From the NCBI GenBank assembly GCA_013696105.1, contig JACCZE010000336.1:7865-71864 (forward strand): a DNA stretch of 64,000 nt, given 5' to 3'. The notes beneath the pieces are model-generated. The model saw only the letters and a program-made list of their open reading frames with translations, did not search any database and was not told the DNA's origin. The translations under genes were made by a program, and so were the position numbers. Positions 40,815 to 62,735 of this stretch are shown here, in pieces. Position 1 is the first letter of the stretch; each line of letters starts with the position of its first letter. The DNA is from Planctomycetota bacterium (GTDB lineage Bacteria; Planctomycetota; UBA11346).

Positions 40815-41445
40815 CGAGAGGATGGATCCGAGGGCACACAACGACACGATCCTGGCACCGTGCCTGGTCCCGATCACCGCTGAGAACAGGCCACCCGGCT
40901 CGGAGAGGTTCTCTGAATCGCGGTATGATCCGATCATCGGGCAGCGTGCCCATCTGCGCTGGGATCCGCGGTTGCGTCGGGACGTCGGTGCGGTTTCCAT
41001 GATGGATGGATGGAAAGACCCACGCATCGACAGGCGAGGCAACCGGCTTGGATCGGCGTCTCCGTCTCTGCAATGCGCTATACAGGTCGCCAAAGCGGTC
41101 CGGCTGGTCCCGCTATGCCTCACAGGTCGTCGGGGGCCTCGGAATATCGATTCTGGCTAGGACGCCGTGGGTGCGTCCAGTGGCTGAAGACGGGGATGCA
41201 GGAAAACGGATGGTGGACCGGTGCCAGATCCAGGCGGAATTCCTGGGAGAATCCCGGAAATGCCGAGCCCCGGTCCGCCAGGCGCCCGTCGGAAAGCCCG
41301 CAAAATCCCAAAATGTGGAGAACTTGTCGGCAAAGACCTGAAACCTGCTCTTGTCGCTGCCAGCGGAGACGCCAAACATGTCCCCGGTCGGCGAACATCA
41401 TCGCTGGCCCGTGTCCATGGCCGTGGCCGTTCGAGAGGGGTCCCA
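40815..41445. other. 630-bp non-coding, lower-GC region upstream of the dnaB-like gene; possible long leader, regulatory region or unrecognised ncRNA
   Basis: There is no convincing ORF: all frames here give R/P-rich or stop-interrupted products. Local GC drops. It contains a short GATGGATGGATGG repeat and one near-DnaA-box, TGTGGAGAA. Confidence 0.3.
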
Positions 41446-43098: not shown

Positions 43099-43328
43099 TC
43101 CCTGCGAGGTCGTCAGAACTGGAAGCGCTGAGCGGCCAGCCGCTTGGGTGAACCATCAGGTCACCGTTCGCAACGATAGCCGTTGTTGCATTATTCTGCG
43201 ATCATGTGTGCTGTCGCGCTCGCGTCTGCGAGCAGAGGTATCGCTGTGCCACCAGGAGTTCAGGGCATGACCACGAGTCGGATGCTGCGCGATCGACCGG
43301 TCGGGTCCGGAATGGCAGCCAGACGCCG

Positions 43329-45488
43329 ATGAGCGAACCGGACTCCGCTCCTCCCTCCACGCCGGCCGCACCGCCCGAGGCTGGCGATGCCCGAGCGCCT
43401 GGCGCCGGTGGCCAAGACGCAGGGGGCGGACGTTCGATCACCTTCAAGTCGGTGTTCTTCGGCCTGGCCGGCGTCGGATTCATCGCCTTGTATGCCAACT
43501 TCAACAGCGAGATCCTCAAGCTCAGCTCGATCATCGGCAACCAGCTGCCGATCGGGCCGTTCTTCATCATCCTCGTCCTGGCGACCCTATGGAATCCACT
43601 CGCTGGCAAGGTATCGAGCCGTCTGCGCTTGAGCACGCGCGAATTCGCCGTGGTGCTGGCGATGATGCTGATCTCCTGCTGGCTGCCGATGAGCGGGTTC
43701 TACATGCTCTTCCAGCGGGCGATCATCACCCCGTGGACGGTTGCCGCCGGCAAGCCCGACTGGGAGGTCCACAAGACGCTGTCGCACCTCCCAAAGGAGC
43801 TGTTCCCGCTCGAGCATGAACGCGGGTCCACCCAGGCCGACAAGGAAGCCTACGAGCGGGTCTACGAGAGCTTCGCGCAAGGCATCCCGCACGGGGACGA
43901 GAAGCTGGGGTTGACCGAAGCCCCGTATCGCGAATGGCTGCCCGCGATGATGCGGTGGGCTCCGTTGTTGCTGTTCGTGTCGATCGCGGTCATCTCGCTG
44001 ATCCTGCTCGTGCATCGACAGTGGTCGCATCACGAGCAGCTCGCCTATCCCCTGGCCATCGTCTCGACCGCGCTGATCGCGCGGACCGGGTCTCGGGCCA
44101 CCTCCGACATCTTCTATTCCCGGCTGTTCTGGTTCGGGTTCGCACCCGTGTTTGCGATCCACCTGTTCAATTATCTGCACGCGTGGTTTCCGCTGTACGT
44201 GCCGGAGATCAAGCTGACCACCGAGCTGATCGGGGAATTCAAGGAGATCTTCCCGTCGCTGAAGAACTCGATGACCCACGTCACCTCGATCAAGGTGAGC
44301 TTCCTGATCATCGGCATCGCCTACTTCATCGCATCGGACATCAGCCTCAGCCTGGGTATGGCCTCCTTGTTCGTCAGCGTGTTCACCGCCCAGTTCTACA
44401 TCATGAGCGGCGGCATGCCTGTGGGCTGGGGCGAGATGGCCAACATCCGCGCCGGCAGCTATGTGGCCTACGCTGCCCTGCTGGTCTACACGGGGCGCCA
44501 TTTCTACTGGAAGGTCTTCAACAAGGCGGTCCGGCCCATTTCCCAACGAGAGGATATGGAGGCCGTCTGGGCGGCGCGCATCTTCGTCCTGTCGTTCGCC
44601 TGCTTCGTGGGTTTCCTGATCACGGTGATGGATCTCGACTGGTTCATCGCCCTGATCTACGCCGGCAGCGTGATGCTCTTCATGCTGGTGTTCACCCGCA
44701 TCATCTGCGAAACCGGATTGCCGTTCCTGGCCGCGGGTGTCGACATCATCAATGTCATCACCTCGCTCCTGGGTGCGCCTGCGGTCGGTCCAGGCGCGCT
44801 CGTCGTCATCTATTACCTATCATGCATCATCAAGACTGACACCACCGAGGCGCTGATGCCCTACGTCGCGACCAGCTTGAAGACCGCCGACAATGTCGGA
44901 GTCAGCAGGCCGCGCCTGCTGACGGTCGCCTTCGCGGGCATGACCATCGCGTTCGCGCTCTGCTTCTTCTCATGGACCTACGGGCTCTACGCCAAGGGGT
45001 CGGGCAACAACATGTGGGTGGTGTCGCCGTCGATCTGGGCCCTGGATAACGCGACCACCAAGCTCGCGATCCTCAAGGATACCGAGCAATTGGCGGAATC
45101 AGCGAACACCCACGGTTTGGCCAAGCTTGGCCTGATCCCGCAGAACGTCGGCAACGGGCTGATCATCAAGTGGATGGGATTAGGCGCCTTCTTCGTGCTG
45201 GCATTCTCGCTGCTGCGCTTCCGATTCGCGTGGTGGCCGCTGCACCCTGTGGCATTCCTGGTCTGGGGCACCAGCGCGTCGCGCGTGACATGGTTCTCCT
45301 TCTTCCTCGGATGGTGCATCAAGGAGCTGATCGTGCGATTCGGCGGGGGGCGGAGCTACCAATCGCTCAAGCCGATCTTCCTCGGGCTGATCATGGGCGA
45401 GATCGTGGCGGTGGCGATGACCCTGGTCTGTGGAGCCTTCTACTACTGGTCGACCGGCCTGCTGCCGAAGACGATCGGGATCTGGTGA
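43329..45488 (+). CDS. Large polytopic membrane protein (about 719 aa, about 16 TM), OPT-oligopeptide-transporter-like; paralog of 52592-54547
   Basis: An Ala/Pro/Gly-rich N-terminal tail, then repeated TM helices. Segment-level similarity to the second membrane protein (LSTREFAVVLAMMLIS versus LSRAQLFVLFYLSGTII) and loosely to OPT-family N-termini. The start is at the Met at 43329. Confidence 0.6.
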   Translation: MSEPDSAPPSTPAAPPEAGDARAPGAGGQDAGGGRSITFKSVFFGLAGVGFIALYANFNSEILKLSSIIGNQLPIGPFFIILVLATLWNPLAGKVSSRLRLSTREFAVVLAMMLISCWLPMSGFYMLFQRAIITPWTVAAGKPDWEVHKTLSHLPKELFPLEHERGSTQADKEAYERVYESFAQGIPHGDEKLGLTEAPYREWLPAMMRWAPLLLFVSIAVISLILLVHRQWSHHEQLAYPLAIVSTALIARTGSRATSDIFYSRLFWFGFAPVFAIHLFNYLHAWFPLYVPEIKLTTELIGEFKEIFPSLKNSMTHVTSIKVSFLIIGIAYFIASDISLSLGMASLFVSVFTAQFYIMSGGMPVGWGEMANIRAGSYVAYAALLVYTGRHFYWKVFNKAVRPISQREDMEAVWAARIFVLSFACFVGFLITVMDLDWFIALIYAGSVMLFMLVFTRIICETGLPFLAAGVDIINVITSLLGAPAVGPGALVVIYYLSCIIKTDTTEALMPYVATSLKTADNVGVSRPRLLTVAFAGMTIAFALCFFSWTYGLYAKGSGNNMWVVSPSIWALDNATTKLAILKDTEQLAESANTHGLAKLGLIPQNVGNGLIIKWMGLGAFFVLAFSLLRFRFAWWPLHPVAFLVWGTSASRVTWFSFFLGWCIKELIVRFGGGRSYQSLKPIFLGLIMGEIVAVAMTLVCGAFYYWSTGLLPKTIGIW

Positions 45489-45489
45489 C

Positions 45490-46965
45490 ATGAGCGCTCC
45501 AGGCATCGACGTTCGCGCTCAGCACACGATCCCGTTGGCCAAGGCCACCACGCTGTGCCTGAAGGGTATCACCCATCGCCTGTTCCGTTCGCTGCTGACG
45601 CTGATGGTCATCGTGCTCGCCGTGGCGTTTTTCATGACTCTGCTGTGCGAAGCTGCCTTCACGCGCGCGATCGGAAGAGGCGTCATGTCCGAGGCTGCCG
45701 AGCAGCGCATCCCCGAGCGGCGCGCGAAGATTTGGTTCTCGCAGCCATCGCAGGTCCTGCTCGCGACTCGGTTGGCCACCGCCACGCAAGCGGATATCGA
45801 CGAATTCGCCGCGGTATCGGGAGTCGAGCACGCCCACGTGCAGCACCTCGTCGTTGAAAGCGATCGACAGGCGAGGCTCCTAGCTTTTTTCGCCACCATG
45901 GATGCCGGCAGTCGCGCGGTGCTGATCGGAAAGGTCAAAGGTCGCGAGGTGTTCACGCATCTTTCGGATCCAGCGGGATGGGAGGCTTTCACCCAGGGCG
46001 TGCGTCAGGTCCACGCTTATTCGCTGCCACTGCCGTTGCCCGAGATCAAGACGTTCATCGATGGCTATCCGGGCTATATTCGCGATCTCGATGCCTTCGC
46101 CTCCGCATGGAAGGCCGGTGTTTCTCGTTTCACCGCAGAGCTCGCTCCGATCGCCGGAACCACCGAAGAAGCCGGGTGGCGCGCGTGGCTGGTGTCGGCC
46201 GATGCCGGACAGCTCGCAACCGTCCAGGCGTTGCTGGCACGGCATGGCTTCCGGGATACCCTCGAGATTGTCGCGCGCGTGCGCCAAGGTCTGGCCGACG
46301 CCCAGGTGCGCGACCAGATCGCCGCTGCATTGGATTCGGACAAGGCCGTCGTCGCTTGGAAGAAGACCTTCCTGAACGATCCGTCTCCGGACCAGAAGAT
46401 GGGCTTCATCGCGGACAAGCGGGTGGAGCGGGTCCTGGAGGGGCGGTGGAGCCACGAGCGCCTGACTGCGGTCGCGGCGGGCATCGATCATGAGCACCAG
46501 GTCGCCAATCTCGAGAAGGTGGTGTCCCAGCGCATTCCCGACCAGCGCAGCGATGCGCTGATCAACGGTCGTCAGGCGTTCCTCATGGCCATCTCGTTCG
46601 TGGTATGCATGGTCGGCATCGCCAACGCCATGCTCATGGCGATCACCGAGCGCTTCCGTGAGATCGCGACCATGAAATGCCTCGGTGCCACCGACGGCTT
46701 CATCCTGCAGCAGTTCCTGATGGAGGCGGGCATCCAGGGGCTCGCTGGCGGGGCGGTCGGCATGGTCATCGGTGCAGTGTTGGCCGTGGCCAAGGGATCG
46801 GTCGTGTACGGCTCCTACCTCTATGGATATTTCCCCATCGTCGATGTCCTGATCGCAGCGGCGATCTGCATCGCGACCGGAGTCCTTCTATCCACCCTCG
46901 CCTCAATCTATCCGTCGTGGACCGCATCGCGGATGGCCCCGATGGATGCTATGAGGGTCGAGTGA
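45490..46965 (+). CDS. ABC transporter permease, FtsX/MacB-like (type VII ABC), 4 TM with a large periplasmic domain of about 330 aa
   Basis: TM1 (FRSLLTLMVIVLAVAF), a long extracytoplasmic domain, then the FtsX C-terminal signature ITERFREIATMKCLGATDGFILQQFLMEAG...YPSWTASRMAPMDAMRVE. Confidence 0.85.
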   Translation: MSAPGIDVRAQHTIPLAKATTLCLKGITHRLFRSLLTLMVIVLAVAFFMTLLCEAAFTRAIGRGVMSEAAEQRIPERRAKIWFSQPSQVLLATRLATATQADIDEFAAVSGVEHAHVQHLVVESDRQARLLAFFATMDAGSRAVLIGKVKGREVFTHLSDPAGWEAFTQGVRQVHAYSLPLPLPEIKTFIDGYPGYIRDLDAFASAWKAGVSRFTAELAPIAGTTEEAGWRAWLVSADAGQLATVQALLARHGFRDTLEIVARVRQGLADAQVRDQIAAALDSDKAVVAWKKTFLNDPSPDQKMGFIADKRVERVLEGRWSHERLTAVAAGIDHEHQVANLEKVVSQRIPDQRSDALINGRQAFLMAISFVVCMVGIANAMLMAITERFREIATMKCLGATDGFILQQFLMEAGIQGLAGGAVGMVIGAVLAVAKGSVVYGSYLYGYFPIVDVLIAAAICIATGVLLSTLASIYPSWTASRMAPMDAMRVE

Positions 46966-47729
46966 TGACGTTCGATCCGATCGCTTATGGTCGCGGCAAA
47001 TCGATCCTCGTGCGCGCGCATGGCGTGCAGAAGACCTATGTCCGCGGGGCCGAGGTCACCCAGGCGCTCAAGGGCATCGACCTCGAGATTTACCGAGGCG
47101 AATATATCTGCGTCATGGGTCCGTCAGGCTCCGGAAAATCGACATTCTTCAATATGGTCGGCGGTCTGGATTCACCCACGGCGGGCCGGGTATTCATCGA
47201 CGAGGTCGACATGGCCCAGCTCAACGCCCATGAGCTGGCGTTTCTGCGGTGCCGCAAGATCGGCTACATCTTCCAGTCCTACAATCTGAATTCGGTGATG
47301 ACCGCTCTCGAGAACGTCACGCTGCCGATGACCTTCGCGGGCGTCCATTCTGATGAGGCGCGGCGTCGAGGCATGGAGCTGCTCGAGCGCGTCGGGCTCG
47401 GCGACCGCTGGCTGCACCGGCCCAAGCAGATGTCGGGCGGTCAGCAGCAGCGCGTCGCCATCGCTCGCGCACTCGCCAATCGCCCGTCACTGCTGCTGTG
47501 CGACGAGCCGACGGCGAACCTCGACCTGGTCTCAGGCAAGGAGGTGCACCGTATCCTGCATGATCTCAATCGCGATGACGGCGTCACCATCATCTGTGCG
47601 ACGCACGACCACAACATGCTTGAGGTCAGCAACCGCATGATCTGGATCGCGAACGGCCAGATCGAGCGCGTCTCGTTGAGTTCGGATGTGCGCCTCGAAC
47701 GCGCCAGCCTGGGTGACGACCATGGGTGA
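46965..47729 (+). CDS. ABC transporter ATP-binding protein (MacB/LolD-type NBD)
   Basis: Walker A GPSGSGKST, Q-loop, ABC signature MSGGQQQRVAIARAL, Walker B LLLCDEPTANLD and H-loop CATHD. The start overlaps the upstream stop as TGATG. Confidence 0.9.
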   Translation: MTFDPIAYGRGKSILVRAHGVQKTYVRGAEVTQALKGIDLEIYRGEYICVMGPSGSGKSTFFNMVGGLDSPTAGRVFIDEVDMAQLNAHELAFLRCRKIGYIFQSYNLNSVMTALENVTLPMTFAGVHSDEARRRGMELLERVGLGDRWLHRPKQMSGGQQQRVAIARALANRPSLLLCDEPTANLDLVSGKEVHRILHDLNRDDGVTIICATHDHNMLEVSNRMIWIANGQIERVSLSSDVRLERASLGDDHG

Positions 47730-50700
47730 CCGCATCATGCGTCTGTTCATCGCGTGCTGCGCCGTGGTGTCGCTGACCGCGGCCGAGGCGCATCCCGCGT
47801 ACGATGCCGTGATGGCGGAGTTCTCGCGCCATGACCAGCGCCTGCCCGGTAGCGAAGCGTACCGGTCGAGCATTGCCGAGCTCGAGAAGGTCCTGCGCGC
47901 ATCCGGGCTCGAGCCCCATCGGCAGACGTTCGATACGCTGGTCCCGCGCACGCTCACATGCTCGCTGTCCATCGGCGGAGCGGACATCTCGCCGGTCCAT
48001 CCGCTCGCTCCCAATGGTGTTGCTCCCACCGGAACCTGGGGTGCTCCCGTCTCCGGACCCCTGGTGTACGTCGGCTCCGGATCTCCAGCCGATATGGATG
48101 GCAAGCCGATCGAGGGAAGCATCGCGGTGATGGAGTTCGGCGGACCGCACATGGACGAGGTCTTCGCCCAGGGCGCGCGCGCCGTGGTATTCGTCGGCAA
48201 CGACACCGCGACGCAGTGGTCGGTGGCCAAGCATTTCACCTCGTTGCCTGCGATCGTGCCGCGCGTCTATGTCGATCGCCCGGTCGCCGAGCGCGCGGGC
48301 ATGCTGAGCGCCGATGGCTCCGCAACCGCCACCCTCGACGTCTCGACCGCCTGGGAAGATGTCCAAGGCATCAATGTCTGGGCCAAGGTGCCATCCAAGA
48401 GGCCGCGCCCGCAGGTCGCAGAGGGGGAGACCGCCACCCCTCGGCACGCCTTCGTGCTGTCTGCGAATATGGGGACGTTCGGGTCCGTTCCGGACCTCAG
48501 CCCGCAACGGCGCTGGGCCGCGAACTGCGCCCTGCTCGCGGAAGTCGCGGCACGCCTCCAGCGCGAGCAGGCGGAGGCCGAGGTCTACATCGTCTTCTTC
48601 GGCAGCCATTACTCCGCCGAGGAAGGCGCGCGGTTCTTCTATTACGTGGTCGATAAGCATCGCAAGGGCGCGACCGATCGGGATACGTTGGCCTATCGCG
48701 ATCAATCCGTCTACCGCATGCAGCTCGAGCAGGTGGACCGATATACCGCACTTCTCGACCGCGAGGATTTCGCGGGCTCGACGACACGCGATGCGGTCAT
48801 GGTCCGTCTGCAGCTGAAAAACCACCTGGTGGGTATCGTCAACGACATCAACTACGATATGCGCGCATCGGCCATCGCCCAGAGCGCGCTCGAGAAGCGG
48901 ATTGCGGTGATGTCGTCGACGCGCACAAAGGATCTGGCGGAGGGCGTTCCTGAACTCGAGCATGCAATCGCTACGCAAGTCGCCGAGCAGAAGGAGCTGA
49001 AGACCACCAAGTCGGCGGTCAACGTCCTGCGCGGGGAACTGGCCGAAGGAGCATTCAGCGACAAGGCCGCGATCGCCAAGCATATCGACGTCATCCGCGA
49101 GCGGCTCAAACGCAAACGCGCGTGGCTGGAACGGATGATCGCCCACAACGCGACTTTCATCGAGCTGGCGGGGTCGCTCAAAGGCGAGACCATCATCGGC
49201 CACCTGTCGTTCGATTTTTCGTCCTCCGATCGTTCGTGGATGCTCTGTTGTTTCGGTGAGAATTGCTGGTCACGAGCCGAGGAGATATGGCCGGGCGCGC
49301 TCGGAAAGCATGTCACGGCCTACAAGAACGCGTTCGAGTCGATGCAACCGCGGACGGACGGCGTTGGCGGATTGTGGGTCCCGAGCAATGACGCGCCCTT
49401 CCGCTGGGACGCGTTGAGCACTCCGCACAGCCGCACCATCCCATCGGCCACTGCGGTCGCACTCGGGATCGCCGGATTCGAACTGATGACGCTCGCCGAT
49501 CCCCTCGACCACGACGAAATGCCGGTGCTCGGCGAGTGGAAGCTCGCGCCCCTGGCGCCGATGCTCGCGGATTGGGTGAGATCGCTGGCCGCGGTCGATG
49601 ATCTGCCGGTGAAGACCGGGATCCTGCCGACGGAGTACTTCGCTCCGCTCCAGTATTCGGCCTCGGGCGAGGACCTCACCGGTCTCGAGATCGTCGATCA
49701 GGCAAAGGGGGCTGAAGACGTCCAGGGCCTCGCGCGCAATGCGGTGGCGACGGTCGGCTACATGCCGCACAACATCGCCTCTTTCGAGCCGCCCTACAAG
49801 CTCGGCGCTATCAACATGGTGCTCTCGCGCGTGACTCCGGATGGCCGCGTCTTCGCGCCGAACGTGATCAGGCAACCGGACTACGACCCAACCGGCAACT
49901 ACGTCAACGCCTTCGGTTTCACCTCTGATGGCAGGATCGAGCGCACGTCTCCGAATGGACAGGGCGGGGGCAGCCGACTGAAGCTCTTCTATGCCTTCGG
50001 CGGATCGTTCTATACGCCATTCATCCCCAACGATTACATCTTCGTGAATCGCAGCGATTTCCTCGTGGCCAAGACCGACAGCGGTCCGAAGCGTCAGTTC
50101 TCGGCGTGGTTCCGCGGTTTGGAGGTCTTCTACCAGGATCAGCCCGTCAATTTCAAATACCTCGGCAATGGGATGAACATCCTCGGCATCGAGCAGGGGC
50201 TCGGACACGGCGTGGGGATCCCGATCACGTCGACGGACCTGATCGGCTTGAATGTCACCCGTCGATCCGGACACGACTACTCGGCGCTGAATCTGCAGCG
50301 GTTGAAGGCCCTGCGTGAACGCAATCTGGTCAACAAATCACTCGAGAAGCTGCAGGCTGACGCGCAAGAACAGGTCGATCTGGGCGACTCGTCGCGCAAG
50401 GATGGGGAAATCCGTTCAGCGATCGCGCACGATACCATCGCCACGATCATCGGTAACAGGGTGCATCAGCCGCTTCGCGACAACGCCTCTGACCTGGTGC
50501 AGGCGGTCATCATCCTGCTGCTCCTGTGCATCCCATTCTCGTTCGCATGCGAACGGCTGATGATCGGCGCAGCGTCCATCTATCGGCAGATCATCGGCTT
50601 TCTGAGCATCTTCCTCGCCACCTTCGGCGTGCTGTATGCCACCCATCCCGCGTTCTCGCTGGCCTCGGCCCCGATCGTCATCTTCCTGGCGTTCATCATC

Positions 50701-52599
50701 ATCCTGCTGAGCACCTTCGTGATCTTCGTAGTGATGAGCAAGTTCAAGCAGGAGCTCAAAGCGCTCCAGGGGTTATCCTCGAAAGTCCACGGCGGACAGG
50801 GGGAGAGCAGCACCGCGCTCGCGGCGGTGGTGATCGGCATCTCGGGCATGCGCAACCGGCCCTTGAAGACCTTTCTGACGTCGACCACGGTGGTGCTGCT
50901 GACCTTCACCATCCTGGTGTTCGCCTCGTTCACCTCGAATGTCGGCGTCGTCTCGACCTTCGTCGGAGCCGCTCGCGGTCCGGATCGCATCGAATTCCAT
51001 ACACCATCGTTCATGTTCATCCCCGATCGGCTGCTCGACAGCATCTCGGCGGTCTATGGTGATCGGTTCGACGTCTATCGTCGAGCAGGCTCGTTCAAGG
51101 TCTGGGGAAACGTCGGCACCCGTGATGAGATCGTGAATGTCGCCTTCAACCCCAAGGGCGACAAATACCAGCGCCTTGACAGCATGCTGATCGTCGATGA
51201 GCGCGAGGTCCCGAGGTTGGACCCCTTGTTCGCTCCGTTGGCGCAGCCATCGGACTCCGATCTCCCGCCGATCCTGCTGTCGCCCTTGGTGGCGAAGAAG
51301 GTGGGCCTCGCCATCGGGGATACCGTCACCGTCCGAGGTCAAAGCTATCGTCTCGCCGGCACGTTCGACGGCCCGACGCTCAAGCGCATCGAGAACGTCG
51401 ACGCATCGCGCATGCTTCCTCCGGATTTCGATCGTTCGAGTTCCAGTCTCGGCGTCAGCGCCGACAACCAGGACCGGATGCAGAACTTCTTCAAGAGCCT
51501 GGATTTCACCGGATTCATCTACAGTACGCCGGACATGGTCGGCGTCACCACCTTCGCAGGCATGGCGAAGCTGGGCCGGATCGACAATTACCTGGTAATG
51601 TACCCGAAAACCTCGGATGTCGATGTCGATACCGCTGCGCGCGAGATCGCCTCGTACGTCGATGGCCCGGTGTGCGCCTCCGTCGCAGGCAAGGGAACGA
51701 ACCGCTACATCTTCTCACGCGCGTTCGCCGGCTCAGGATTCATCGAGGTGCTGGTGCCGCTGCTGCTGGGCGGGCTGATCATCTTCAGCTCGCTCCTCGG
51801 GTCGATCGTGGATCGTCAGAAGGAGATCTACACCTTCAGCGCGCTCGGGCTCGCTCCACCGGACGTCGGTGCCCTGTTCTTCGCCGAGTCGGCGGTGTAC
51901 TCGGTCCTCGGCGGCATGGGCGGGTACCTCATCAGCCAGGTGGTCGCAAAGGGCCTGATGGTGCTCTCGGCCCATGGGCTCGCCGACGTACCGGACCTGA
52001 ACTTCTCCTCGCTCTCATCGATCGCGACCATCCTCATCGTGATGCTGACCATTATGCTATCGACCATCTATCCGGCGATGATGGCCGGCCGGTCGGCGAA
52101 CCCCGGCGTCGCGCGCAAATGGAAGATGCCAAAGCCCGAGGGCGACCGCATCGCTTTCACATTCCCGTTCACCGTCTCTGCCGAGAGCATCGGCGGCATC
52201 CTCGCCTTCATTCGCGAGCATTTCGAGAACCACGGAGACGCGACGCTCGGGGCATTCTCCGCGCGCGACATTCGCATCTTCCGTGACGAAGGCTCCGCCG
52301 GGCGACCTCCGTCGACGGGAATCTCCGCCGACGTATCGCTCGCTCCGTTCGACCTCGGAGTGCTGCAGCGCTTCGTCCTGAGCACCCGCCCATCGGATAT
52401 CAAGGGCATCGATGAGGTGGTGGTCGAGCTGACGCGCATCAACGGCGCGCCTGGCACGTGGCTGCGCGGCAATCGCGAATTCATCAACGACCTGCGCAAT
52501 CAGTTCTTGTTCTGGCGCTCGCTGCCGCTGGCGACCACCGAGCATTACCAGGAGATCGCTGCGCGCTCATTCGGCACGGCGGAGGTGTCCCTTGGCTAG
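47722..52599 (+). CDS. Giant (about 1625 aa) secreted/membrane protein: signal peptide, M28-peptidase-like domain with a PA-domain insert (canonical metal-ligand motifs not evident), 3 extra TM helices, then an FtsX/MacB-type permease module (4 TM plus a 270-aa periplasmic domain)
   Basis: Signal peptide MRLFIACCAVVSLTAAEA. A PA-like IAVMEFGGPHMDEVFAQGARAVVFVGND. An M28-like layout VLSANMGTF...AANCALLAEVAARL...VYIVFFGSHYSAEEG with EE retained but the HxD/DD positions replaced. FtsX TM1 RNRPLKTFLTSTTVVLLTFTILVFA. The FtsX C-terminal module RQKEIYTFSALGLAPPDVGALFFAESAVYSVLGG...YPAMMAGRSANPG. The start is at 47722 (or 47737). Confidence 0.75.
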   Translation: MGDRIMRLFIACCAVVSLTAAEAHPAYDAVMAEFSRHDQRLPGSEAYRSSIAELEKVLRASGLEPHRQTFDTLVPRTLTCSLSIGGADISPVHPLAPNGVAPTGTWGAPVSGPLVYVGSGSPADMDGKPIEGSIAVMEFGGPHMDEVFAQGARAVVFVGNDTATQWSVAKHFTSLPAIVPRVYVDRPVAERAGMLSADGSATATLDVSTAWEDVQGINVWAKVPSKRPRPQVAEGETATPRHAFVLSANMGTFGSVPDLSPQRRWAANCALLAEVAARLQREQAEAEVYIVFFGSHYSAEEGARFFYYVVDKHRKGATDRDTLAYRDQSVYRMQLEQVDRYTALLDREDFAGSTTRDAVMVRLQLKNHLVGIVNDINYDMRASAIAQSALEKRIAVMSSTRTKDLAEGVPELEHAIATQVAEQKELKTTKSAVNVLRGELAEGAFSDKAAIAKHIDVIRERLKRKRAWLERMIAHNATFIELAGSLKGETIIGHLSFDFSSSDRSWMLCCFGENCWSRAEEIWPGALGKHVTAYKNAFESMQPRTDGVGGLWVPSNDAPFRWDALSTPHSRTIPSATAVALGIAGFELMTLADPLDHDEMPVLGEWKLAPLAPMLADWVRSLAAVDDLPVKTGILPTEYFAPLQYSASGEDLTGLEIVDQAKGAEDVQGLARNAVATVGYMPHNIASFEPPYKLGAINMVLSRVTPDGRVFAPNVIRQPDYDPTGNYVNAFGFTSDGRIERTSPNGQGGGSRLKLFYAFGGSFYTPFIPNDYIFVNRSDFLVAKTDSGPKRQFSAWFRGLEVFYQDQPVNFKYLGNGMNILGIEQGLGHGVGIPITSTDLIGLNVTRRSGHDYSALNLQRLKALRERNLVNKSLEKLQADAQEQVDLGDSSRKDGEIRSAIAHDTIATIIGNRVHQPLRDNASDLVQAVIILLLLCIPFSFACERLMIGAASIYRQIIGFLSIFLATFGVLYATHPAFSLASAPIVIFLAFIIILLSTFVIFVVMSKFKQELKALQGLSSKVHGGQGESSTALAAVVIGISGMRNRPLKTFLTSTTVVLLTFTILVFASFTSNVGVVSTFVGAARGPDRIEFHTPSFMFIPDRLLDSISAVYGDRFDVYRRAGSFKVWGNVGTRDEIVNVAFNPKGDKYQRLDSMLIVDEREVPRLDPLFAPLAQPSDSDLPPILLSPLVAKKVGLAIGDTVTVRGQSYRLAGTFDGPTLKRIENVDASRMLPPDFDRSSSSLGVSADNQDRMQNFFKSLDFTGFIYSTPDMVGVTTFAGMAKLGRIDNYLVMYPKTSDVDVDTAAREIASYVDGPVCASVAGKGTNRYIFSRAFAGSGFIEVLVPLLLGGLIIFSSLLGSIVDRQKEIYTFSALGLAPPDVGALFFAESAVYSVLGGMGGYLISQVVAKGLMVLSAHGLADVPDLNFSSLSSIATILIVMLTIMLSTIYPAMMAGRSANPGVARKWKMPKPEGDRIAFTFPFTVSAESIGGILAFIREHFENHGDATLGAFSARDIRIFRDEGSAGRPPSTGISADVSLAPFDLGVLQRFVLSTRPSDIKGIDEVVVELTRINGAPGTWLRGNREFINDLRNQFLFWRSLPLATTEHYQEIAARSFGTAEVSLG

Positions 52600-54547
52600 G
52601 ATCGACAAGGAACTGGAGCAATACCGCCAGCTGATGTCAGTGCCATCGGTGTTCGAGAACGGATTCTCGCTCTCAACCTTCTTCGGCGTGATGTTCATCG
52701 CCCTGGTGATGGTGCCTGGATCGTTGTACATGGAGCTGCTCGCCGGCCAGGGTGTCGGATCGTCGGCCCAGTGGGTGACGGTGATCCTGTTCATGGAGAT
52801 CGCGAAGCGCGCGAACGCCAAGCTGTCACGCGCCCAGCTCTTCGTGCTGTTCTACCTGTCCGGCACCATCATCGGGCAGGGTGGCGGCCTCTTGTGGACG
52901 CAGTTCCTGGTGCGCAGCGACGCGGCCCTGGGAGCCGGCATGAGCGGTGCCTTCCCGATCTGGGTGGCTCCGAGCGACCCGGCTGCCTTTGAGAACCGCA
53001 CGTTCCTCCAGGCTGCGTGGCTGCCCGCGATCGGTCTCATCTTCTTCAAGATGTTTTTCGGTCGGCTCGACAACATGGTGTTGGGATACGGCCTCTTCCG
53101 GCTGACCAGCGACGTCGAGAAGCTGCCGTTCCCGCTCGCGCCTATTGGCGCGCAGGGGATGCTCGCGCTCGCGGACGATCTCGAAGGCAAGGCTCAGGTC
53201 CAGGGATCGTGGCGCTGGCGGGTGTTCTCGATCGGTGGCGCCCTGGGCATGATCTTCGGTGTGCTGTTCTACGGCTTGCCGACGATCAGTGGTGCGGTGT
53301 TCGGCACATCGTTCACCGTTTTGCCGATCCCTTTCGCGGACTGGTCGGACTACACCAAGACCTACCTGCCCGCGGTCGCGACGGGCCTGTCGTTCGATCT
53401 CGGCAACATCATCCTCGGTATGGTGATGCCCTATTTCGCCATGGTGGGGTCCTTCATCGGCCTGATCACCACCTTCATCATGAATCCGATCCTGTACCAC
53501 ACCGGGGTGCTGACCTCGTGGACCCCGGGCGACAGCACCGTCGAGACGATGTTCAAGAACTCGATCGACCTCTATTTCAGCTTCGGCATCGGGCTGTCGC
53601 TGGCGATCGCGGTCATCGGCTTCATGGCGGTGTTCAAGCTCAAGAAGAAGCAGCGCGAGGACCATGCCGCGGCCCTCGGCAGCGATATCCCGCCTGGCCG
53701 AGGCGACATCCCCAACCGCGTCGTGCTCTGGACCTACGTGCTCTCGACCATCATCTACATCCTGGTCTGCGGATACCTGGTGGATTGGCACACCGGGGTG
53801 ATGGTGGTCCTGGTGTTCTTCGGATTCCTGTACACGCCGATCATCTCCTACGTCACCGCCCGCCTCGAAGGCATCGCCGGGCAGGTGGTCGAGATCCCCT
53901 ACATCCGCGAACTGTCCTTCATCCTGTCAGGCTATCAGGGGGTGGGGATCTGGTTCATCCCCACGCCGATGGCCAATTATGGCGCCCAGACCGTGTTCTA
54001 CCGGCAGGCGGAACTCACCGGCACCCGATTCACGTCCTTGTGGAAGTCCGAGGTCTTCCTCTTCCCGGTGATGATCGTCGCGACCATCGCCTTCGCGAGC
54101 TTCATCTGGGGACTGGGCGAGATCCCCTCGTCGGTCTATCCCTTCACCCAGCAGATGTGGGAGCTCAACGCCAAGAATGCGGTGCTGGTGATGTCGTCCA
54201 CCACCGGCGAGTACTCGCAGTTCCAGGAGGCGCTCTCCGGAACCAAGGTCGGTATCGGCTTCGGCGTCGGCATGGGCGTCTTCGGTTTCCTCGCCGTCTT
54301 CAATGCGCCGACGACCCTGCTCTACGGTCTGATCCGCGGCATCGGCCAGACCACCCCGCACATGGTGATCCCGCAGTTCCTGGGTGCGCTGCTCGGGCGT
54401 TATTACTTCGAGAAGCGCCTGGGCCTGAAATGGCGCGAATACGTGCCCGTGCTCAGCGCGGGATTCTTCTGCGGTGCGGGCCTCATCACCATGTTCTGCA
54501 TCGGAGTGGTGTTCCTGATGAAATCCAGCAACCACCTGCCCTACTGA
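52592..54547 (+). CDS. Large polytopic membrane protein (651 aa, about 16 TM), OPT-like; paralog of 43329-45488
   Basis: A TTG start with a perfect GGAGGTG RBS 4 nt upstream, overlapping the upstream stop. Hydrophobic throughout, with a GMVMPYFAMVGSFIGLITTFIMNP region. Confidence 0.6.
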   Translation: MARIDKELEQYRQLMSVPSVFENGFSLSTFFGVMFIALVMVPGSLYMELLAGQGVGSSAQWVTVILFMEIAKRANAKLSRAQLFVLFYLSGTIIGQGGGLLWTQFLVRSDAALGAGMSGAFPIWVAPSDPAAFENRTFLQAAWLPAIGLIFFKMFFGRLDNMVLGYGLFRLTSDVEKLPFPLAPIGAQGMLALADDLEGKAQVQGSWRWRVFSIGGALGMIFGVLFYGLPTISGAVFGTSFTVLPIPFADWSDYTKTYLPAVATGLSFDLGNIILGMVMPYFAMVGSFIGLITTFIMNPILYHTGVLTSWTPGDSTVETMFKNSIDLYFSFGIGLSLAIAVIGFMAVFKLKKKQREDHAAALGSDIPPGRGDIPNRVVLWTYVLSTIIYILVCGYLVDWHTGVMVVLVFFGFLYTPIISYVTARLEGIAGQVVEIPYIRELSFILSGYQGVGIWFIPTPMANYGAQTVFYRQAELTGTRFTSLWKSEVFLFPVMIVATIAFASFIWGLGEIPSSVYPFTQQMWELNAKNAVLVMSSTTGEYSQFQEALSGTKVGIGFGVGMGVFGFLAVFNAPTTLLYGLIRGIGQTTPHMVIPQFLGALLGRYYFEKRLGLKWREYVPVLSAGFFCGAGLITMFCIGVVFLMKSSNHLPY

Positions 54548-54601
54548 TGCCGATCACCGCCCGACATCCAGTTGAGACGTGCGCCGATGGGAGGGGATCC
54601 G

Positions 54602-55366
54602 ATGGCTGACTGCCCGATTCCATCCGGCCCCGTGGCTTCGGCCCGCGAGCTGATCGTCCGCGTCAGCGGTGTCGACAAGGTGTATCGCACCGGCCACGAG
54701 ACCGTGTACGCGCTCAAAGGCATCGACCTCGACATCTATCGTGGCGAATACCTGTCGATCATGGGCCCGTCGGGTTCAGGCAAATCCACGCTGTTCAACG
54801 TCATCGGCGCGCTCGACAAGCCCACCCGGGGCGAAGTGGCCGTCGGCTCGGTGTCCCTGCCCAAGCTGAGTTCGGCCGAGCTGTCGTACTTCCGTTGCCG
54901 TCACATCGGCTACGTCTTCCAGAACTACAACCTCATCCAGTCGCTGACCGCGCTCGAGAACGTCACGCTGCCGTTGACCTTCATCGGCGCCGACGACGCC
55001 GAAGCCAAGCGCCGAGCGATGGAGGTCTTGGATTTTGTCGGCCTCGCCGATCGCCTCACCCACAATCCCGGACAGCTCTCAGGCGGTCAGCAGCAGCGCG
55101 TGGCGATCGCCCGCGCATTGGCCAATCGTCCCACCATCCTGCTCGCGGACGAGCCCACGGCGAACCTCGACCTCAAGACCGGCGCGATGGTGATCGACAT
55201 CTTCAAGAAATTGTCGTCCGAGCACGGGGTGACGATCATCACCGCGACCCATGACCACAAGATGCTCGCGGTCTCCGATCGCATCGTCGACATCGCAGCG
55301 GGTCAGGTGGCGCGCATCCGCAACGTGCGCGACCTGAACATCACGGTCGGCAAGATCCATGCCTGA
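54602..55366 (+). CDS. ABC transporter ATP-binding protein (second MacB/LolD-type NBD; paralog of 46965-47729)
   Basis: Walker A GPSGSGKST, LSGGQQQRVAIARAL, ILLADEPTANLD and TATHD. The ATG at 54602 is preceded by GGGAGGGG. The track ORF starts at 54572. Confidence 0.9.
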   Translation: MADCPIPSGPVASARELIVRVSGVDKVYRTGHETVYALKGIDLDIYRGEYLSIMGPSGSGKSTLFNVIGALDKPTRGEVAVGSVSLPKLSSAELSYFRCRHIGYVFQNYNLIQSLTALENVTLPLTFIGADDAEAKRRAMEVLDFVGLADRLTHNPGQLSGGQQQRVAIARALANRPTILLADEPTANLDLKTGAMVIDIFKKLSSEHGVTIITATHDHKMLAVSDRIVDIAAGQVARIRNVRDLNITVGKIHA

Positions 55367-56288
55367 GGCCGACGCGCCGCCGGCGCGGAGGGATGATCGG
55401 CTGCCGCTGCACCTCCAGCGCCTGCGGCACCTGTCGTGGGAGGGCTTCTCCTTCGTGCTTCCTCCGGGCTGGGAAATCACCGCGTACAGCTTGGACGCCA
55501 AGAACGGCCAATTCCAGTTTTTCGAGCGCGGCACATTCCGCGCGCAGTTGGTCTGGCGGAAGGTGCCCAAGGCCCCGGATCTGCCGCGTATCCTCAACGA
55601 GATCCATCGGCGTCAGCTCGAGAAGGATGCGCCCGGTTCCTCGAAGTCGTTCAGCACGCTCGAATTCGCCCAGATCGGTCGGTTCCTGGTCGGCCACGAC
55701 CGGCCTGGCCTACCCTGCCAGGCCTCGCTCTTCCAGCCCGATCGCGGCCTGCTCATCCAGTGGGTCTTCCCCAGCTACGATCCAGGAGATTTCATCACGA
55801 GTTGGATGCCGCTGCTCGACTCGTTCGCGCCGAACGATGCCGCGGAGATGCGCTGGGAGCTGTTCGGCCTGTCGCTGCGGCTGCCGCGAAGCATGACCTT
55901 CGAGGAGATCACTCCTGATCCTGCGAATGTGGCGTTGTCGTTCGAGACCAGGAAGCACGCGAAGCTGGTCGCTCGCCGCATGGGCCTTCCGACCATCGTG
56001 CTCGCCGGTACGTCTCTCGCGCGGGTGCATGCGCGCATCCTCGAGCGCGCCGGATCGCGCATCCTCTCGTGCGAGGATCTCTCCATGGATGGCCACCGTG
56101 CGGTGCGCACGCGCTTCGACCGGCGCGGCATGAAAGGCATGGAGAAGTTGGTCGGCGGCTGGTGGCCCGGAGACGCCTGGATCTGGCACGACGAGATCGA
56201 GGGTCGCATCTATGCCATCGAGCAGTTCGGACCCAGGAAGCAGATTCCGATCGAGTTGTCAGCGATCATCCGCCGGGACGGTCCGTGA
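55359..56288 (+). CDS. Hypothetical protein (309 aa); possibly a degenerate HprK-kinase-C-terminal-like domain without a P-loop
   Basis: No Walker A. The segment LAGTSLARVHARILERAGSRILSCEDL loosely parallels the HprK [27 protein letters not shown] with the P-loop lost. The start overlaps the ATPase stop. Confidence 0.45.
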   Translation: MPEADAPPARRDDRLPLHLQRLRHLSWEGFSFVLPPGWEITAYSLDAKNGQFQFFERGTFRAQLVWRKVPKAPDLPRILNEIHRRQLEKDAPGSSKSFSTLEFAQIGRFLVGHDRPGLPCQASLFQPDRGLLIQWVFPSYDPGDFITSWMPLLDSFAPNDAAEMRWELFGLSLRLPRSMTFEEITPDPANVALSFETRKHAKLVARRMGLPTIVLAGTSLARVHARILERAGSRILSCEDLSMDGHRAVRTRFDRRGMKGMEKLVGGWWPGDAWIWHDEIEGRIYAIEQFGPRKQIPIELSAIIRRDGP

Positions 56289-56674
56289 TGGTCGCTAAGC
56301 CAAAGGGTCCGGGGACACTGGCAGAACAGATGTCGGCAGTCCCGGTGCGCAACGAGAAGGTGCGTGTCGTCGAGCAGTCCGGCGGGGCGCACCTGACCGT
56401 ACCCTTGACCTACCACGCCATGCTGCGGCCACTGGCGTCGGCGATGAAGCTGCGCACCGAGAAGACGTTCCAGCTGGATGTGCTCGCCTACTCGGTGTAC
56501 CGCCGGATCGACGGCGTCGCGACCGTCGAGACCCTCGCTGATCGGCTGAAGGATGAATTCCAGCTGTCATTCCATGAGGCGCGCGTGCTGGTGATGCGCT
56601 ACCTGCAGCTCTTGATGGTTCGTGGACTGGTGGTCCTGGCAAAGCCTCTTCCGGCTCCGACCACCGGGGGCTGA
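56288..56674 (+). CDS. PqqD-family-like protein (RiPP recognition element / peptide chaperone fold), 128 aa
   Basis: VPVRNEKVRVVEQSGGAHLTVPL...FQLDVLAYSVYRRIDGVATVETLADRLKDEFQLSFHEARVLVMRYLQLLMVRGLVVL follows the PqqD/RRE pattern P.....V.......L.....L.LN..A..IW.L.DG..TV.EI...L...F.V....A..DV..FL..L...GL. The start overlaps the upstream stop as TGATG. Confidence 0.5.
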   Translation: MVAKPKGPGTLAEQMSAVPVRNEKVRVVEQSGGAHLTVPLTYHAMLRPLASAMKLRTEKTFQLDVLAYSVYRRIDGVATVETLADRLKDEFQLSFHEARVLVMRYLQLLMVRGLVVLAKPLPAPTTGG

Positions 56675-56791
56675 TCCACTCGGTCGATCCTCTCTGTCGA
56701 AGGTTCGGGTGATCCGAGTGCTGATTCTGGCTGCTTGGCACGACTGGCGCTCACATGGTGAAACACCAGCGCTACGCTCGTGAGGGGCCAT

Positions 56792-58192
56792 ATGTTCCGG
56801 ATTCATCGTGCAGTCTGCAGTCTCGCCATCCTGTGCATGCTTGCCGGATGCGGCGGCGGTGGCGGGGGAAGCACTCAGCCGGTTGGCCAATCCACCACTC
56901 CCGTGACGATCGTAGTTCCCACACGTGCGGATCTGGTCCTGGCTGAGCCCATGCAGATGTCCACGAACTCCGGAGTCACCATCCAGCTCATGGTCCGGAA
57001 CGTCGGCGGCGTCGATGCTGCCGATGTGGGTTTGAAAGCGACCCGAGCCGATGGCACGGTGGTGCATCAGGAGACCATAGCAAGCATGCCGGCAGGATCC
57101 GAGCGGATGGTGATGTTCTCGGACGGCGCGCAGGGGGTCAATCAGACCTTCACCATCGTCGTCGATCCAGACAACCGCATCGTCGAGGCTTTCGAGGACA
57201 ACAACACGATCACCGTGACCTCGACATTCATCGATACGCCTTCGACGCTGAATGGCGATCTGGCTCTCAACGGCGTCCATACCCATGGGGCGGTCTACTT
57301 CGCCGATCCGTCGTTCCATCTCTACATCGAGAACAACACCGACCAGAGTCTCAGCGGCATCACCGTCACCGTCCGTGACGAGGCCTCCGGCCAGGATCTC
57401 TACGGGATGCCGTACACCGAATCCACGGTGATCGCTGCGCATACCGTCGGACCTCGCAGCGGGAACCAGGGAGCGGAGGAGCAGGGGATCTTCCGCGCGC
57501 CGTTCTCCGATCCCGCTTACGCCTCCCAGCCCAAGCCGACCCCTGGCCGCCACGTCTACCACGTCATCCTCGACCCCAATGGGCGCTTCGCGGAGACCAA
57601 TGAGGCCAACAACGACTGGCGCCTCGTCGTCAACGTCCCAAGCGGCTATGGCTATTGGCCGCTATCCAACGGCACGGATACGATCGGAGACACCTACAAG
57701 ACCGATGTCATGTTCCAGGATCCGCACATCCATCCCGCGGATCGCCAGCGCTATGTGACCTTCCATGGTTGGCTCAAGAACAACCACCCGGGCAAGCAAC
57801 TCGTCGGACACGACCTGATCAACGGATCCGACCCGGACTACCCCGGTGTGGCCAAGCGCATCGTTCCCTTCGTGGTCAAGCGCGAGGGCGTGCCGATCAC
57901 CTTGATCGCGCCGGGTTTCGATGCCAACCGCCAGATCAATTACGGGGTCACCGCCGCCGGCAAAGCGTACTTCATCCTACCCGATGCCGGATTGGCGCCG
58001 CAGGCAAACCGCGAGTACCTGTTCATCACCCAGGAGCCGCAATCGACGGGCGAGATCAACTACACCATCGACCTCGATCCGGACAACGTCATCGATGAGC
58101 AGTACGAAGGCACGAACATGGGCCAGGGCCCGATCGACAACAACCACGCCGACTCGGTGGTGGTGATGGATCCGCTCGGCACGCCCGGCTGA
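56792..58192 (+). CDS. Lipoprotein with three CARDB-like Ig-fold repeats
   Basis: Lipobox MFRIHRAVCSLAILCMLAGC followed by a Gly-rich linker. The pattern ADLVL......N.GG..A....L......G......T......G......F..G......T..VDP.N.V.E..E.NN repeats. The ATG at 56792 has a GAGGGG RBS. The track ORF starts at 56780. Confidence 0.7.
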   Translation: MFRIHRAVCSLAILCMLAGCGGGGGGSTQPVGQSTTPVTIVVPTRADLVLAEPMQMSTNSGVTIQLMVRNVGGVDAADVGLKATRADGTVVHQETIASMPAGSERMVMFSDGAQGVNQTFTIVVDPDNRIVEAFEDNNTITVTSTFIDTPSTLNGDLALNGVHTHGAVYFADPSFHLYIENNTDQSLSGITVTVRDEASGQDLYGMPYTESTVIAAHTVGPRSGNQGAEEQGIFRAPFSDPAYASQPKPTPGRHVYHVILDPNGRFAETNEANNDWRLVVNVPSGYGYWPLSNGTDTIGDTYKTDVMFQDPHIHPADRQRYVTFHGWLKNNHPGKQLVGHDLINGSDPDYPGVAKRIVPFVVKREGVPITLIAPGFDANRQINYGVTAAGKAYFILPDAGLAPQANREYLFITQEPQSTGEINYTIDLDPDNVIDEQYEGTNMGQGPIDNNHADSVVVMDPLGTPG

Positions 58193-58358
58193 GACCGGCC
58201 TGGGCGGAGACGACTCCGCCGACTGATCCTCGTTGGCCCGCTCTCGCAGCGGAGCGTCGTTCCAGCCGTTCCACGAACGTTGTTGAGAACTCGTCGAGTC
58301 CCACGCCTTGCGCCTCAGGTCGTCGGTCTACACTGCCAGGCCCGAACGAGCTTGCCGA

Positions 58359-58838
58359 GTGCGCTGCCCCTATTGCAACCAAGATGATGACCGCGTGCTG
58401 GACTCCCGGGCGACCGACGATGGCACCGCGATCCGCCGCCGGCGGGTGTGCAACCCCTGTGGCAAGCGCTACACCACCTACGAGCGCGTCGAGGGCGAAG
58501 AATCGTTGCGCGTGGTCAAGAAGGACGGCCGCATCCAGAGCTTCGACCGCCGTAAGGTGCTTGCCGGAATGATCACCGCGTGCGAGAAGCGCCCGGTATC
58601 CTCCGAGGATCTCGAGGCGTCTGCGAACCGCGTCTATCACCAGCTGCTGAGCCTGGGCGAGCGCGAAGTGGGATCGGCGGTCATCGGCCAGCACGTGATG
58701 GACGAGCTGCACAAGCTGGACCAGGTCGCCTATGTGCGCTTCGCGTCGGTGTACCGCCAGTTCAAGGATCTCGACGAGTTCATGAGCGAACTGCGCCGCG
58801 TCATTGGCGGCGGTGGCCCGCAGCAGAAGCCCGAATGA
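58359..58838 (+). CDS. nrdR: Transcriptional repressor NrdR
   Basis: A Zn-ribbon VRCPYCNQDDDRVLDSR....RRRRVCNPCGKRYTTYE followed by an ATP-cone (VVKKDGRIQSFDRRKV). A GTG start at 58359 gives the canonical M-R-C-P-(F/Y)-C N-terminus. The track ORF starts at 58308. Confidence 0.9.
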   Translation: MRCPYCNQDDDRVLDSRATDDGTAIRRRRVCNPCGKRYTTYERVEGEESLRVVKKDGRIQSFDRRKVLAGMITACEKRPVSSEDLEASANRVYHQLLSLGEREVGSAVIGQHVMDELHKLDQVAYVRFASVYRQFKDLDEFMSELRRVIGGGGPQQKPE

Positions 58839-59013
58839 TGCAATGCGTCCATCCTCGGCGAGGATCCGCACCGAAGCGTGACGCGGCCACCGGGAGGGGA
58901 GCGGGAAAATACTGGCGGCGCATGCGCTGCGATCTAAGAGGGGATCCGCGCGAGCCCGCGGCCTCGACCGGGCGCGCCGCTGCGATCGGGTGTACGCTTC
59001 CGGGATCGACCAC

Positions 59014-61161: not shown

Positions 61162-61216
61162 TCGCTCCCGCCCTCCCACGCGACCCATTCACGCGACTCG
61201 TCCGAAGGAACGCCCC

Positions 61217-62716: not shown

Positions 62717-62735
62717 ATCCGATCCCGGTGGCCCC

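Follow-up and report, generated by a model that had tools for sequence, protein, structure and literature searches.

We analysed a stretch of 64,000 nucleotides (nt) on the forward strand of contig JACCZE010000336.1 (positions 7,865 to 71,864) in the Planctomycetota bacterium assembly GCA_013696105.1; this whole stretch is called the window below, and coordinates refer to it unless another locus is named. At 43329-58192 it carries nine co-directional open reading frames (ORFs) on the plus strand, G1 to G9, which an earlier reading of the letters alone, the first-pass annotation, had listed as one operon. The ORF calls, a coding-type GC content at third codon positions (GC3) of 0.77-0.89 in a window with a GC content of ~0.61-0.72, and the record of the Planctomycetes metagenome-assembled genome (MAG) GCA_020063865.1, whose gene calls coincide with the set G1-G9, all agree on these genes (Table 1). 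The main result is that eight of them, G1-G8, form a unit conserved across phyla and built around permeases and ATPases of the type VII (FtsX/MacB-fold) ATP-binding cassette (ABC) class, whereas G9 is a lineage-specific neighbour.

The genes had been described as packed with spacers of 0-8 nt or with overlapping starts, which holds for six of the eight junctions: G1 and G2 are 1 nt apart, G2/G3 and G7/G8 overlap by 1 nt, and G3/G4, G4/G5 and G6/G7 overlap by 8 nt each. The remaining two are wider, with 54 nt between G5 and G6 and 117 nt between G8 and G9. The start of G5 must be the TTG at 52592, because conserved residues of the protein begin at position 5. A search of the operon and of the sequence ahead of it found no riboswitch or other RNA element, and no sigma-70-type promoter was found on the plus strand, the sigma-70 consensus being uninformative for this phylum. 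Upstream, the transcription unit is probably bounded by the terminator-like hairpin that follows dnaB.

Table 1. Genes, protein parts and upstream features of the cluster, with the number of well-flanked loci, out of 37, that carry each gene.
Feature	Position	Strand	Basis	Loci (of 37)
dnaB, upstream boundary of cluster	41221-43098			
Terminator-like hairpin after dnaB	43170..43189	+	consensus scan, pattern match	
G1, DUF6785 + DUF6784 membrane protein, 719 aa	43329..45488	+	Pfam	22
G2, FtsX/MacB-fold permease, 491 aa	45490..46965	+	Pfam, hydropathy	34
G3, ABC ATPase, 254 aa	46965..47729	+	Pfam ABC_tran, motifs	35
G4, giant FtsX subunit, 1625 aa	47722..52599	+	Pfam, family profile, hydropathy	
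G4 residues 1-342, signal peptide and M28 aminopeptidase-like domain with PA insert	47722..48747	+	family profile against PDB	
G4 residues 925-1003, three extra transmembrane segments linking ectodomain to FtsX module	50494..50730	+	hydropathy	
G4 residues 1050-1450, MacB/LolC-like module of four transmembrane segments with its own periplasmic domain	50869..52071	+	Pfam, PDB matches	
G4 residues 1455-1625, conserved cytoplasmic C-terminal domain, predicted helix-grip/KA1-like	52084..52596	+		
G5, putative divergent OPT-superfamily membrane protein, 651 aa, TTG start	52592..54547	+	Pfam	36
G6, second ABC ATPase, 254 aa	54602..55366	+	Pfam ABC_tran	34
G7, cytoplasmic PsbP/Mog1-like protein, probably two tandem copies of the fold, 309 aa	55359..56288	+		31
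G8, PqqD/RRE-like small cytoplasmic protein, 128 aa	56288..56674	+	Pfam, family profile	31
G9, CARDB lipoprotein, 466 aa	56792..58192	+	Pfam, lipobox	0

The conservation of the unit can be read directly from the order of its genes in other genomes. Stretches related to G4 number at least 594 in GTDB species genomes; for the best 80 of these (L005-L084 in our numbering of loci), all of them from MAGs, we called ORFs, assigned them by profiles made from the window proteins, and give gene counts for the 37 loci with enough flank. The order G2-G3-G4-G5-G6 is kept in ~34-36 of these 37, over several phyla, and G5 stands directly after G4 in 36. G7 and G8 are always adjacent and move as a block, upstream or downstream of the other genes (31/37), so that the most frequent arrangements are G7-G8-G2-G3-G4-G5-G6 (13 loci), G1-G7-G8-G2-G3-G4-G5-G6 (9 loci) and the order of the window, G1-G2-G3-G4-G5-G6-G7-G8 (6 loci). 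Two metagenomic contigs at 46-48% identity have the same gene order, with a Big_2 protein in place of G9. From its pattern of neighbours, G4 appears to be obligatorily partnered with G5 and usually with the DUF6785 permease G1.

The carriers belong mainly to the Planctomycetes-Verrucomicrobia-Chlamydiae (PVC) group (Planctomycetota, Phycisphaerae, Verrucomicrobiota, Kiritimatiellia, Lentisphaeria/Victivallales), with further ones in Polyangiaceae/Myxococcales, Omnitrophota and Sumerlaeia. A word-index search with G4 gave 63 matches, all of ~1600 aa, and a profile of its C-terminal domain matched 1,597 clusters (50% identity), almost without exception as the last part of proteins 1600-1900 aa long; those clusters whose names were looked up are called only 'hypothetical protein'. 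Among ORFs of at least 100 aa in ~80 loci, no other gene recurs in more than four loci, and the co-conserved set contains neither an adaptor, an outer-membrane duct or a LolA-like protein nor a hydrolase, a precursor or a maturation enzyme.

The genes had been taken for one functional module, whose neighbourhood was to be compared across genomes, and the comparison bears this out: gene order and content are kept across phyla at protein identities of 19-55%. That unrelated transporters lie side by side by chance could be argued solely from the generic nature of ABC and permease genes, and we regard it as refuted, because the synteny is kept across phyla, the G7-G8 block permutes as a whole, and one fusion is found. 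What had to be corrected is the size of the module. G9 is indeed a CARDB lipoprotein (Pfam E 7e-21, with an LAGC lipobox), but none of the 80 GTDB loci and none of L002-L004 has a homologue of it, its position is taken by Big_2 proteins in the nearest relatives, and it lies behind the 117-nt gap. We therefore rejected it as a member of the system, and the conserved unit is eight genes, not nine. At greater distance the unit shrinks further: in four remote relatives, 19-25% identical to G4, the giant is directly followed by a G5 homologue in 4/4 and adjoined by a DUF6785 gene in 2/4 (L085, L087). With these genes alone beside the giant, the deepest unit is G4 and G5, with or without G1, and the eight-gene form is a PVC/Myxococcota elaboration of it.

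Several loci vary the pattern. Some genomes have two copies of the giant-G5-G6 block or two DUF6785 genes (L077/L080; L066:1486-7245; L024); L077 and L080, both from Phycisphaerae bacterium SM23_33, are copies of that block on two contigs of one MAG, and in L024 the DUF6785 gene stands directly before the giant, with neither G2 nor G3. An oppositely oriented pair of FtsX permease and ATPase lies just downstream in three loci (L041:18220-20552, L076:11317-14918, L080:4895-6934) and looks like a generic MacB-like transporter.

The ABC core consists of G2, G3 and G6 together with the membrane part of G4. G2 is an FtsX permease, as annotated (Pfam E 2e-16), in which hydropathy places four transmembrane (TM) segments at 35-53, 364-382, 415-433 and 450-468, with a periplasmic loop of ~310 aa between the first and the second. 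Type VII permeases are marked by the FtsX four-TM fold with a large periplasmic domain between its first two segments, and both G2 and G4 show it. G3 and G6, rightly called nucleotide-binding domains, match ABC_tran (E 1e-33 and E 7e-35), are 59% identical to each other and have intact Walker A, signature, Walker B and H-loop motifs. They fall into the LolD/MacB/FtsE clade of type VII ATPases: their top NCBIfam matches are LolD, MacB, DevA and FtsE, every score lying under the equivalog cut-off. The two ATPase lineages are conserved by position, G3 always after G2 and G6 always after G5. The genes had been counted as two ABC modules, and two permeases and two ATPases are there; but a single LolCDE-like heteromer, G2 and G4 with G3 and G6, fits equally well and is, at a stoichiometry that we infer, the most likely assembly. 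In the characterised type VII systems (FtsEX-EnvC, LolCDE, MacAB-TolC, YbbAP-TesA) such assemblies act by mechanotransmission to the periplasmic side, and they often handle membrane-embedded or lipidated substrates.

G4 is the most unusual of the subunits. It runs from a signal peptide through an M28/PA-like ectodomain, three TM segments and an FtsX module of four TM segments to a cytoplasmic C-terminal domain, and the earlier description of a 1625-aa fusion between an M28/PA ectodomain and FtsX is correct. As a single sequence it gives FtsX as its sole Pfam match (residues 1344-1456). A family profile of 37 members, compared with PDB, matches at residues 10-342 with 2ek8 (E 1e-19), 6hc6 (E 3e-17), YwaD, nicastrin and the transferrin receptor, a significant similarity to M28 aminopeptidases with a PA insert, and at ~1270-1445 with MacB, LolC, LolF and YtrF; PF04389 is present in distant members of the family. 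The fold is kept but its chemistry is not: the full His/Asp/Glu/Asp/His metal set plus the catalytic Glu occurs in no member. The motif His is retained in 4 of the 37 (as AHxD[ST] in three and GHFDA in one), at the position of the bridging Asp the members have Arg, Glu or Asp or fall out of alignment, and the Glu-Glu pair is found in none. Since no member has the full metal and catalytic set, the ectodomain is a pseudo-peptidase, as had been proposed. Nicastrin, the transferrin receptor and nicalin likewise place an inactive M28/PA scaffold on the outer face of a membrane complex; they are eukaryotic single-pass proteins, however, whereas the domain in G4 is bacterial and fused to a 7-TM FtsX-type module.

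The ectodomain is followed by a helical insert of ~170 aa, whose sole PDB matches are non-significant ones to coiled-coil proteins (SMC, EmrA, Spc25; E 0.1-1). Residues 490-660 had by eye a motif resemblance to a second half of the M28 domain, but a profile search against PDB found nothing there; this assignment is unconfirmed, and the catalytic comparison above has no alignment for that second half. The extra TM region at 925-1003 is highly conserved in the family. The C-terminal domain is modelled as an antiparallel helix-grip/KA1-like fold, which would place it in the class of the START, Bet v 1 and KA1 lipid and ligand binders.

One known set of proteins has a membrane part homologous to that of G4. 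Residues ~925-1504 (50494-52230) match the PADLOC families PDLC01991 and PDLC01990, listed as 'CARF_m8-LolE_TM'; the window G4 matches 'CARF_m8--CARF_LolE_TM' at E 2e-42 and also matches 'CARF_Beta-galactosidase_LolE_TM', and in the L002 giant residues 986-1539 align to positions 83-596 of 810 in the PADLOC profile. The homologous module is ~500 aa long and runs from the extra TM segments through the FtsX module into the beginning of the C-terminal domain. The PADLOC-matched proteins are other giant or modular proteins on the same extra-TM and FtsX module, with different end domains. We found no characterisation of these families in the literature, their source paper not being among the texts covered. 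The match raises the idea that the cluster encodes a signal-sensing or defence effector in the membrane, kin to these CRISPR-ancillary candidates, with the C-terminal domain as ligand sensor. We consider this highly improbable, since the two ends of G4 differ from those of the PADLOC families, the C-terminal domain taken alone has zero PADLOC matches and is predicted to be an antiparallel helix-grip fold, not a Rossmann-like CARF domain, no cas or other defence genes lie nearby, and the cluster is conserved in the manner of a housekeeping-type module.

The two large membrane proteins G1 and G5 had both been described as OPT-like, as paralogues of each other and as having 16 TM segments. The first statement holds for G5: it scores 30.9 bits against Pfam OPT (PF03169), above the gathering cut-off of 25.8, and 17 of 30 family members match OPT, although the match is very divergent (best E 6e-11). 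G1 does not reach that threshold and is instead a DUF6785 and DUF6784 protein (E 7e-74 and E 2e-25), with no OPT match among 22 family members. The other two statements were not confirmed. BLASTP finds no similarity between the two proteins, and hhalign gives a probability of 10.7% around a shared E-x-L-x-[YF]-P-x-A motif; a remote relationship is possible, but paralogy as stated was rejected. By a rough hydropathy count each of them has ~13-14 TM segments. No solved structure related to either was found by single-sequence or profile search. G5 is under very strong constraint, with a mean identity of 53% across phyla, and is by sequence a divergent member of the OPT superfamily with a predicted transport function; it differs from the rest of that family in being always coupled to a giant FtsX protein.

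The remaining two proteins are cytoplasmic. G7, previously a 309-aa unknown, is a PsbP/Mog1-like protein, probably with two tandem copies of this fold, whose class takes in the Eag chaperones, DcrB and LpqN. It has few close homologues and no family membership in Pfam or NCBIfam; compared with PsbP, Mog1 and DUF1795 (Eag) it shares no sequence-level family and is cytoplasmic and tied to the cluster. Most of its homologues have conserved cysteines (AWxCP...RLY and a C-terminal L-x-C-C, as in L002:6452-7360 and L060:3067-3981), which suggests a metal site; the subfamily in the window is without them (IWHDE..., no CC). G8 was correctly recognised as PqqD-like, with 26.8 bits against the Pfam PqqD cut-off of 23.4, and its family profile matches a solved PqqD-family chaperone of the lasso peptides (B1), 9x90_B, at E 5e-5; G8 is thus a relative of the recognition elements (RRE) of ribosomally synthesised and post-translationally modified peptides (RiPPs). 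The profile similarities to PqqD and TbiB1 are weak (E 0.013-0.07, above the default cut-off of the tool). G8 homologues have a conserved proline-rich segment, VP..P....PP.SW..P, before the PqqD-like core (in the window 56288-56460, residues ~1-55); it is absent from canonical PqqD and poorly conserved in the window G8. G7 and G8 are fused into a single ORF of 437 aa in one Victivallales MAG (L071:2431-3744), which may be a Rosetta-stone hint that G7 and G8 form a complex, or else an artefact of a frameshift or of the assembly.

The identity of G8 bears on one possible role of the cluster, namely that G8 recognises the leader of a ribosomal peptide encoded elsewhere and that the ABC and OPT-like proteins export this peptide or give immunity to it. 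Like lasso B1, PqqD and TbiB1, G8 has a PqqD-type winged-helix domain, its closest solved match is a lasso-peptide protein, MacB-type exporters serve some peptide natural products, and the darobactin transporter DarD is among the ATPase matches. However, unlike the known PqqD/RRE systems, the cluster is without a radical-SAM enzyme, protease, cyclase or precursor, and among ORFs of at least 100 aa in the 80 loci no precursor, maturation enzyme or protease is co-conserved. TIGR03859 gives 20 bits against a cut-off of 46, G8 stays below the cut-offs of the pyrroloquinoline quinone (PQQ) pathway and ScmD equivalogs, and the gaps inside the cluster are too small for a precursor. G8 is also paired with a PsbP/Mog1-like protein whose fold is not enzyme-like, and the cluster behaves as a vertically inherited core locus across phyla, here between dnaB and nrdR. 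A RiPP role is thus very unlikely.

More generally, the view that the cluster matches no named system has held up. None of the NCBIfam equivalogs for LolD, LolCE, FtsE, FtsX, MacB, DevA, DarD, PqqD and ScmD reaches its cut-off, and literature searches on DUF6785/6784, FtsX with M28 and PqqD, OPT with FtsX and PVC, and type VII ABC with PqqD found no description of the cluster. For LolCDE, TIGR02212 scores 44 bits against 362, and TIGR02211 scores 218 (G3) and 227 (G6) against 307.75. The two systems have in common two different FtsX-fold permeases and ATPases that score best against LolD, and extraction of a substrate from the membrane is a possible common action; unlike LolCDE, the cluster has two distinct ATPases, no co-conserved LolA/LolB-like partner and a neighbouring lipoprotein gene that is not conserved. 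With MacAB-TolC and YbbAP-TesA it has in common the MacB-fold TM module and the principle of mechanotransmission to a periplasmic partner, but the conserved set is without a MacA-type adaptor, TolC or a TesA-like hydrolase. In addition, its ATPases are not fused to a permease as in MacAB-TolC, there is no MacB_PCD Pfam match, and NF007826 scores at most 214 bits against 966.

The comparison with FtsEX has to be taken further, since it leads to a different view of what the cluster does. FtsEX controls coiled-coil proteins with degenerate or real hydrolase domains (EnvC, PcsB, RipC, CwlO), and an FtsX-fold permease with an FtsE/LolD-like ATPase is present here too. The ABC core might transport nothing: ATP would switch the coiled-coil and pseudo-peptidase ectodomain on and off, which would control a periplasmic enzyme or the remodelling of wall or envelope, and the OPT-like proteins would recycle peptides. 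The degenerate metallopeptidase and the helical insert with its non-significant coiled-coil matches have a parallel in EnvC, a coiled coil plus a degenerate LytM domain (PMC7668044 and PMC12505981), and ATP-driven control of such a domain is a plausible common logic. The differences are considerable, however. In the cluster the pseudo-peptidase has an M28/PA-like fold and forms one protein with the permease, permeases and ATPases are each encoded by two genes, and the set also includes two large polytopic partners and two cytoplasmic proteins. The NCBIfam equivalogs are far under their cut-offs (TIGR00439 38.8 bits against 255; TIGR02673 195 and 205 against 264.85), the co-conserved set offers no hydrolase partner, the evidence for a coiled coil is weak, and G7, G8 and the cytoplasmic C-terminal domain are left unexplained. 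A regulator of this kind is a serious candidate but on balance unlikely.

The reading that we prefer, with a probability of about 0.35, is that G1-G8 encode one conserved inner-membrane machine around a type VII ABC mechanotransducer. Synteny, the G7-G8 block, the fusion in a single MAG and the close gene junctions all favour one unit. In this machine the cytoplasmic ligand of G7 and G8 would be a cargo, peptide-like or hydrophobic, or else the tail of a membrane subunit. The OPT-like permease G5, and possibly G1, would provide the path across the inner membrane, ATP hydrolysis by G3 and G6 would drive conformational changes of the FtsX type, and the ectodomains of G2 and G4, the latter a pseudo-peptidase, would take hold of the cargo in the periplasm, extract it or pass it on. 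Like the stoichiometry, the nature of the cargo and the direction in which it moves are what we infer from these parts. The first-pass annotation had proposed a machine for processing, extracting or exporting a peptide or lipoprotein substrate, which is a plausible idea. Because G7 and the C-terminal domain of G4 have folds of classes in which binding of hydrophobic ligands or peptide segments is common, and because type VII systems often act on lipidated or membrane substrates, our best guess, a tentative one, is a peptide-like, lipopeptide or lipid-linked cargo. Stated in full, the proposal is of an envelope machine characteristic of PVC bacteria, and found also in some Myxococcota, Omnitrophota and Sumerlaeota, in which a type VII motor coupled to OPT-superfamily permeases moves such a cargo, recognised in the cytoplasm, to the periplasm or the outer layers; in this complete form it is doubtful, though worth entertaining.

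Several observations weigh against the proposal. No gene for a cargo or substrate is co-conserved in the screen described above, and the cluster holds no precursor-sized gap. None of the four remote variants has an ATPase, G2, G7 or G8 next to the giant, so the ABC and cytoplasmic parts may be later additions or encoded elsewhere. Furthermore, the characterised OPT proteins are importers, and we know of no precedent for an export path through an OPT-like protein.

A rival reading has the reverse direction. The ectodomain could bind extracellular or periplasmic oligopeptides without cleaving them and feed them to G5, maybe also to G1, while the FtsX/ABC part gates or resets the ectodomain and G7 and G8 receive or sense the peptide. 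The characterised members of the OPT superfamily take up peptides or metal chelates, the M28/PA scaffold is a fold that binds peptide N-termini, and the pairing of G4 with G5 is the most deeply conserved one, found also in loci that have no ATPase beside it. Many carriers are also polymer-degrading PVC bacteria; the L002 locus, for example, is flanked by glycoside hydrolases and a sulfatase. On the other hand, there is no known case of a type VII ABC system that supports import, it is not obvious what a PqqD-like chaperone and a PsbP-like protein in the cytoplasm would contribute to uptake, and the metal site by which such a domain normally holds its substrate is lost from the ectodomain. Capture and import thus deserve attention, but we think them rather improbable, and continue to favour the outward-directed machine.

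Other genes lie around the cluster in the window. Upstream, at 34747-37646, a fusion of a mannitol-dehydrogenase-like and a D-lyxose-isomerase-like part (587 aa) precedes a ketohexokinase of the prokaryotic type, an arrangement that points to a sugar-utilisation pair. Downstream come nrdR and a 481-aa protein (58308-60435) whose sole Pfam match is an N-terminal ATP-cone, the remainder being unannotated, and then, ~2 kb from the operon, a type VI secretion cluster (60517-63155 and beyond; L001 15318-20930) with tssB/VipA, tssC/VipB and tssE/gp25, continued in the source contig by tssF, tssG and clpV. This secretion cluster is not linked to G1-G8 in other genomes.

The eight-gene cluster is as widespread as many named systems, yet it is without a name or a literature that we could find, and one of its proteins, G7, is without a family model. 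Its carriers are mainly PVC bacteria, a group in which envelope biology and the routes of uptake and export are poorly understood, and defining the cargo of the cluster could reveal a new envelope pathway. DUF6785/DUF6784 and a bacterial branch of the OPT superfamily could thereby receive their first function, and the work could show what use a dead peptidase domain has on a bacterial membrane motor. The cluster otherwise stays within the type VII ABC machines, but the chance that the assembly as a whole stands for a new logic of transport is substantial: if the proposal is true, the coupling of a secondary-transporter fold to an ABC mechanotransducer would have no characterised counterpart.

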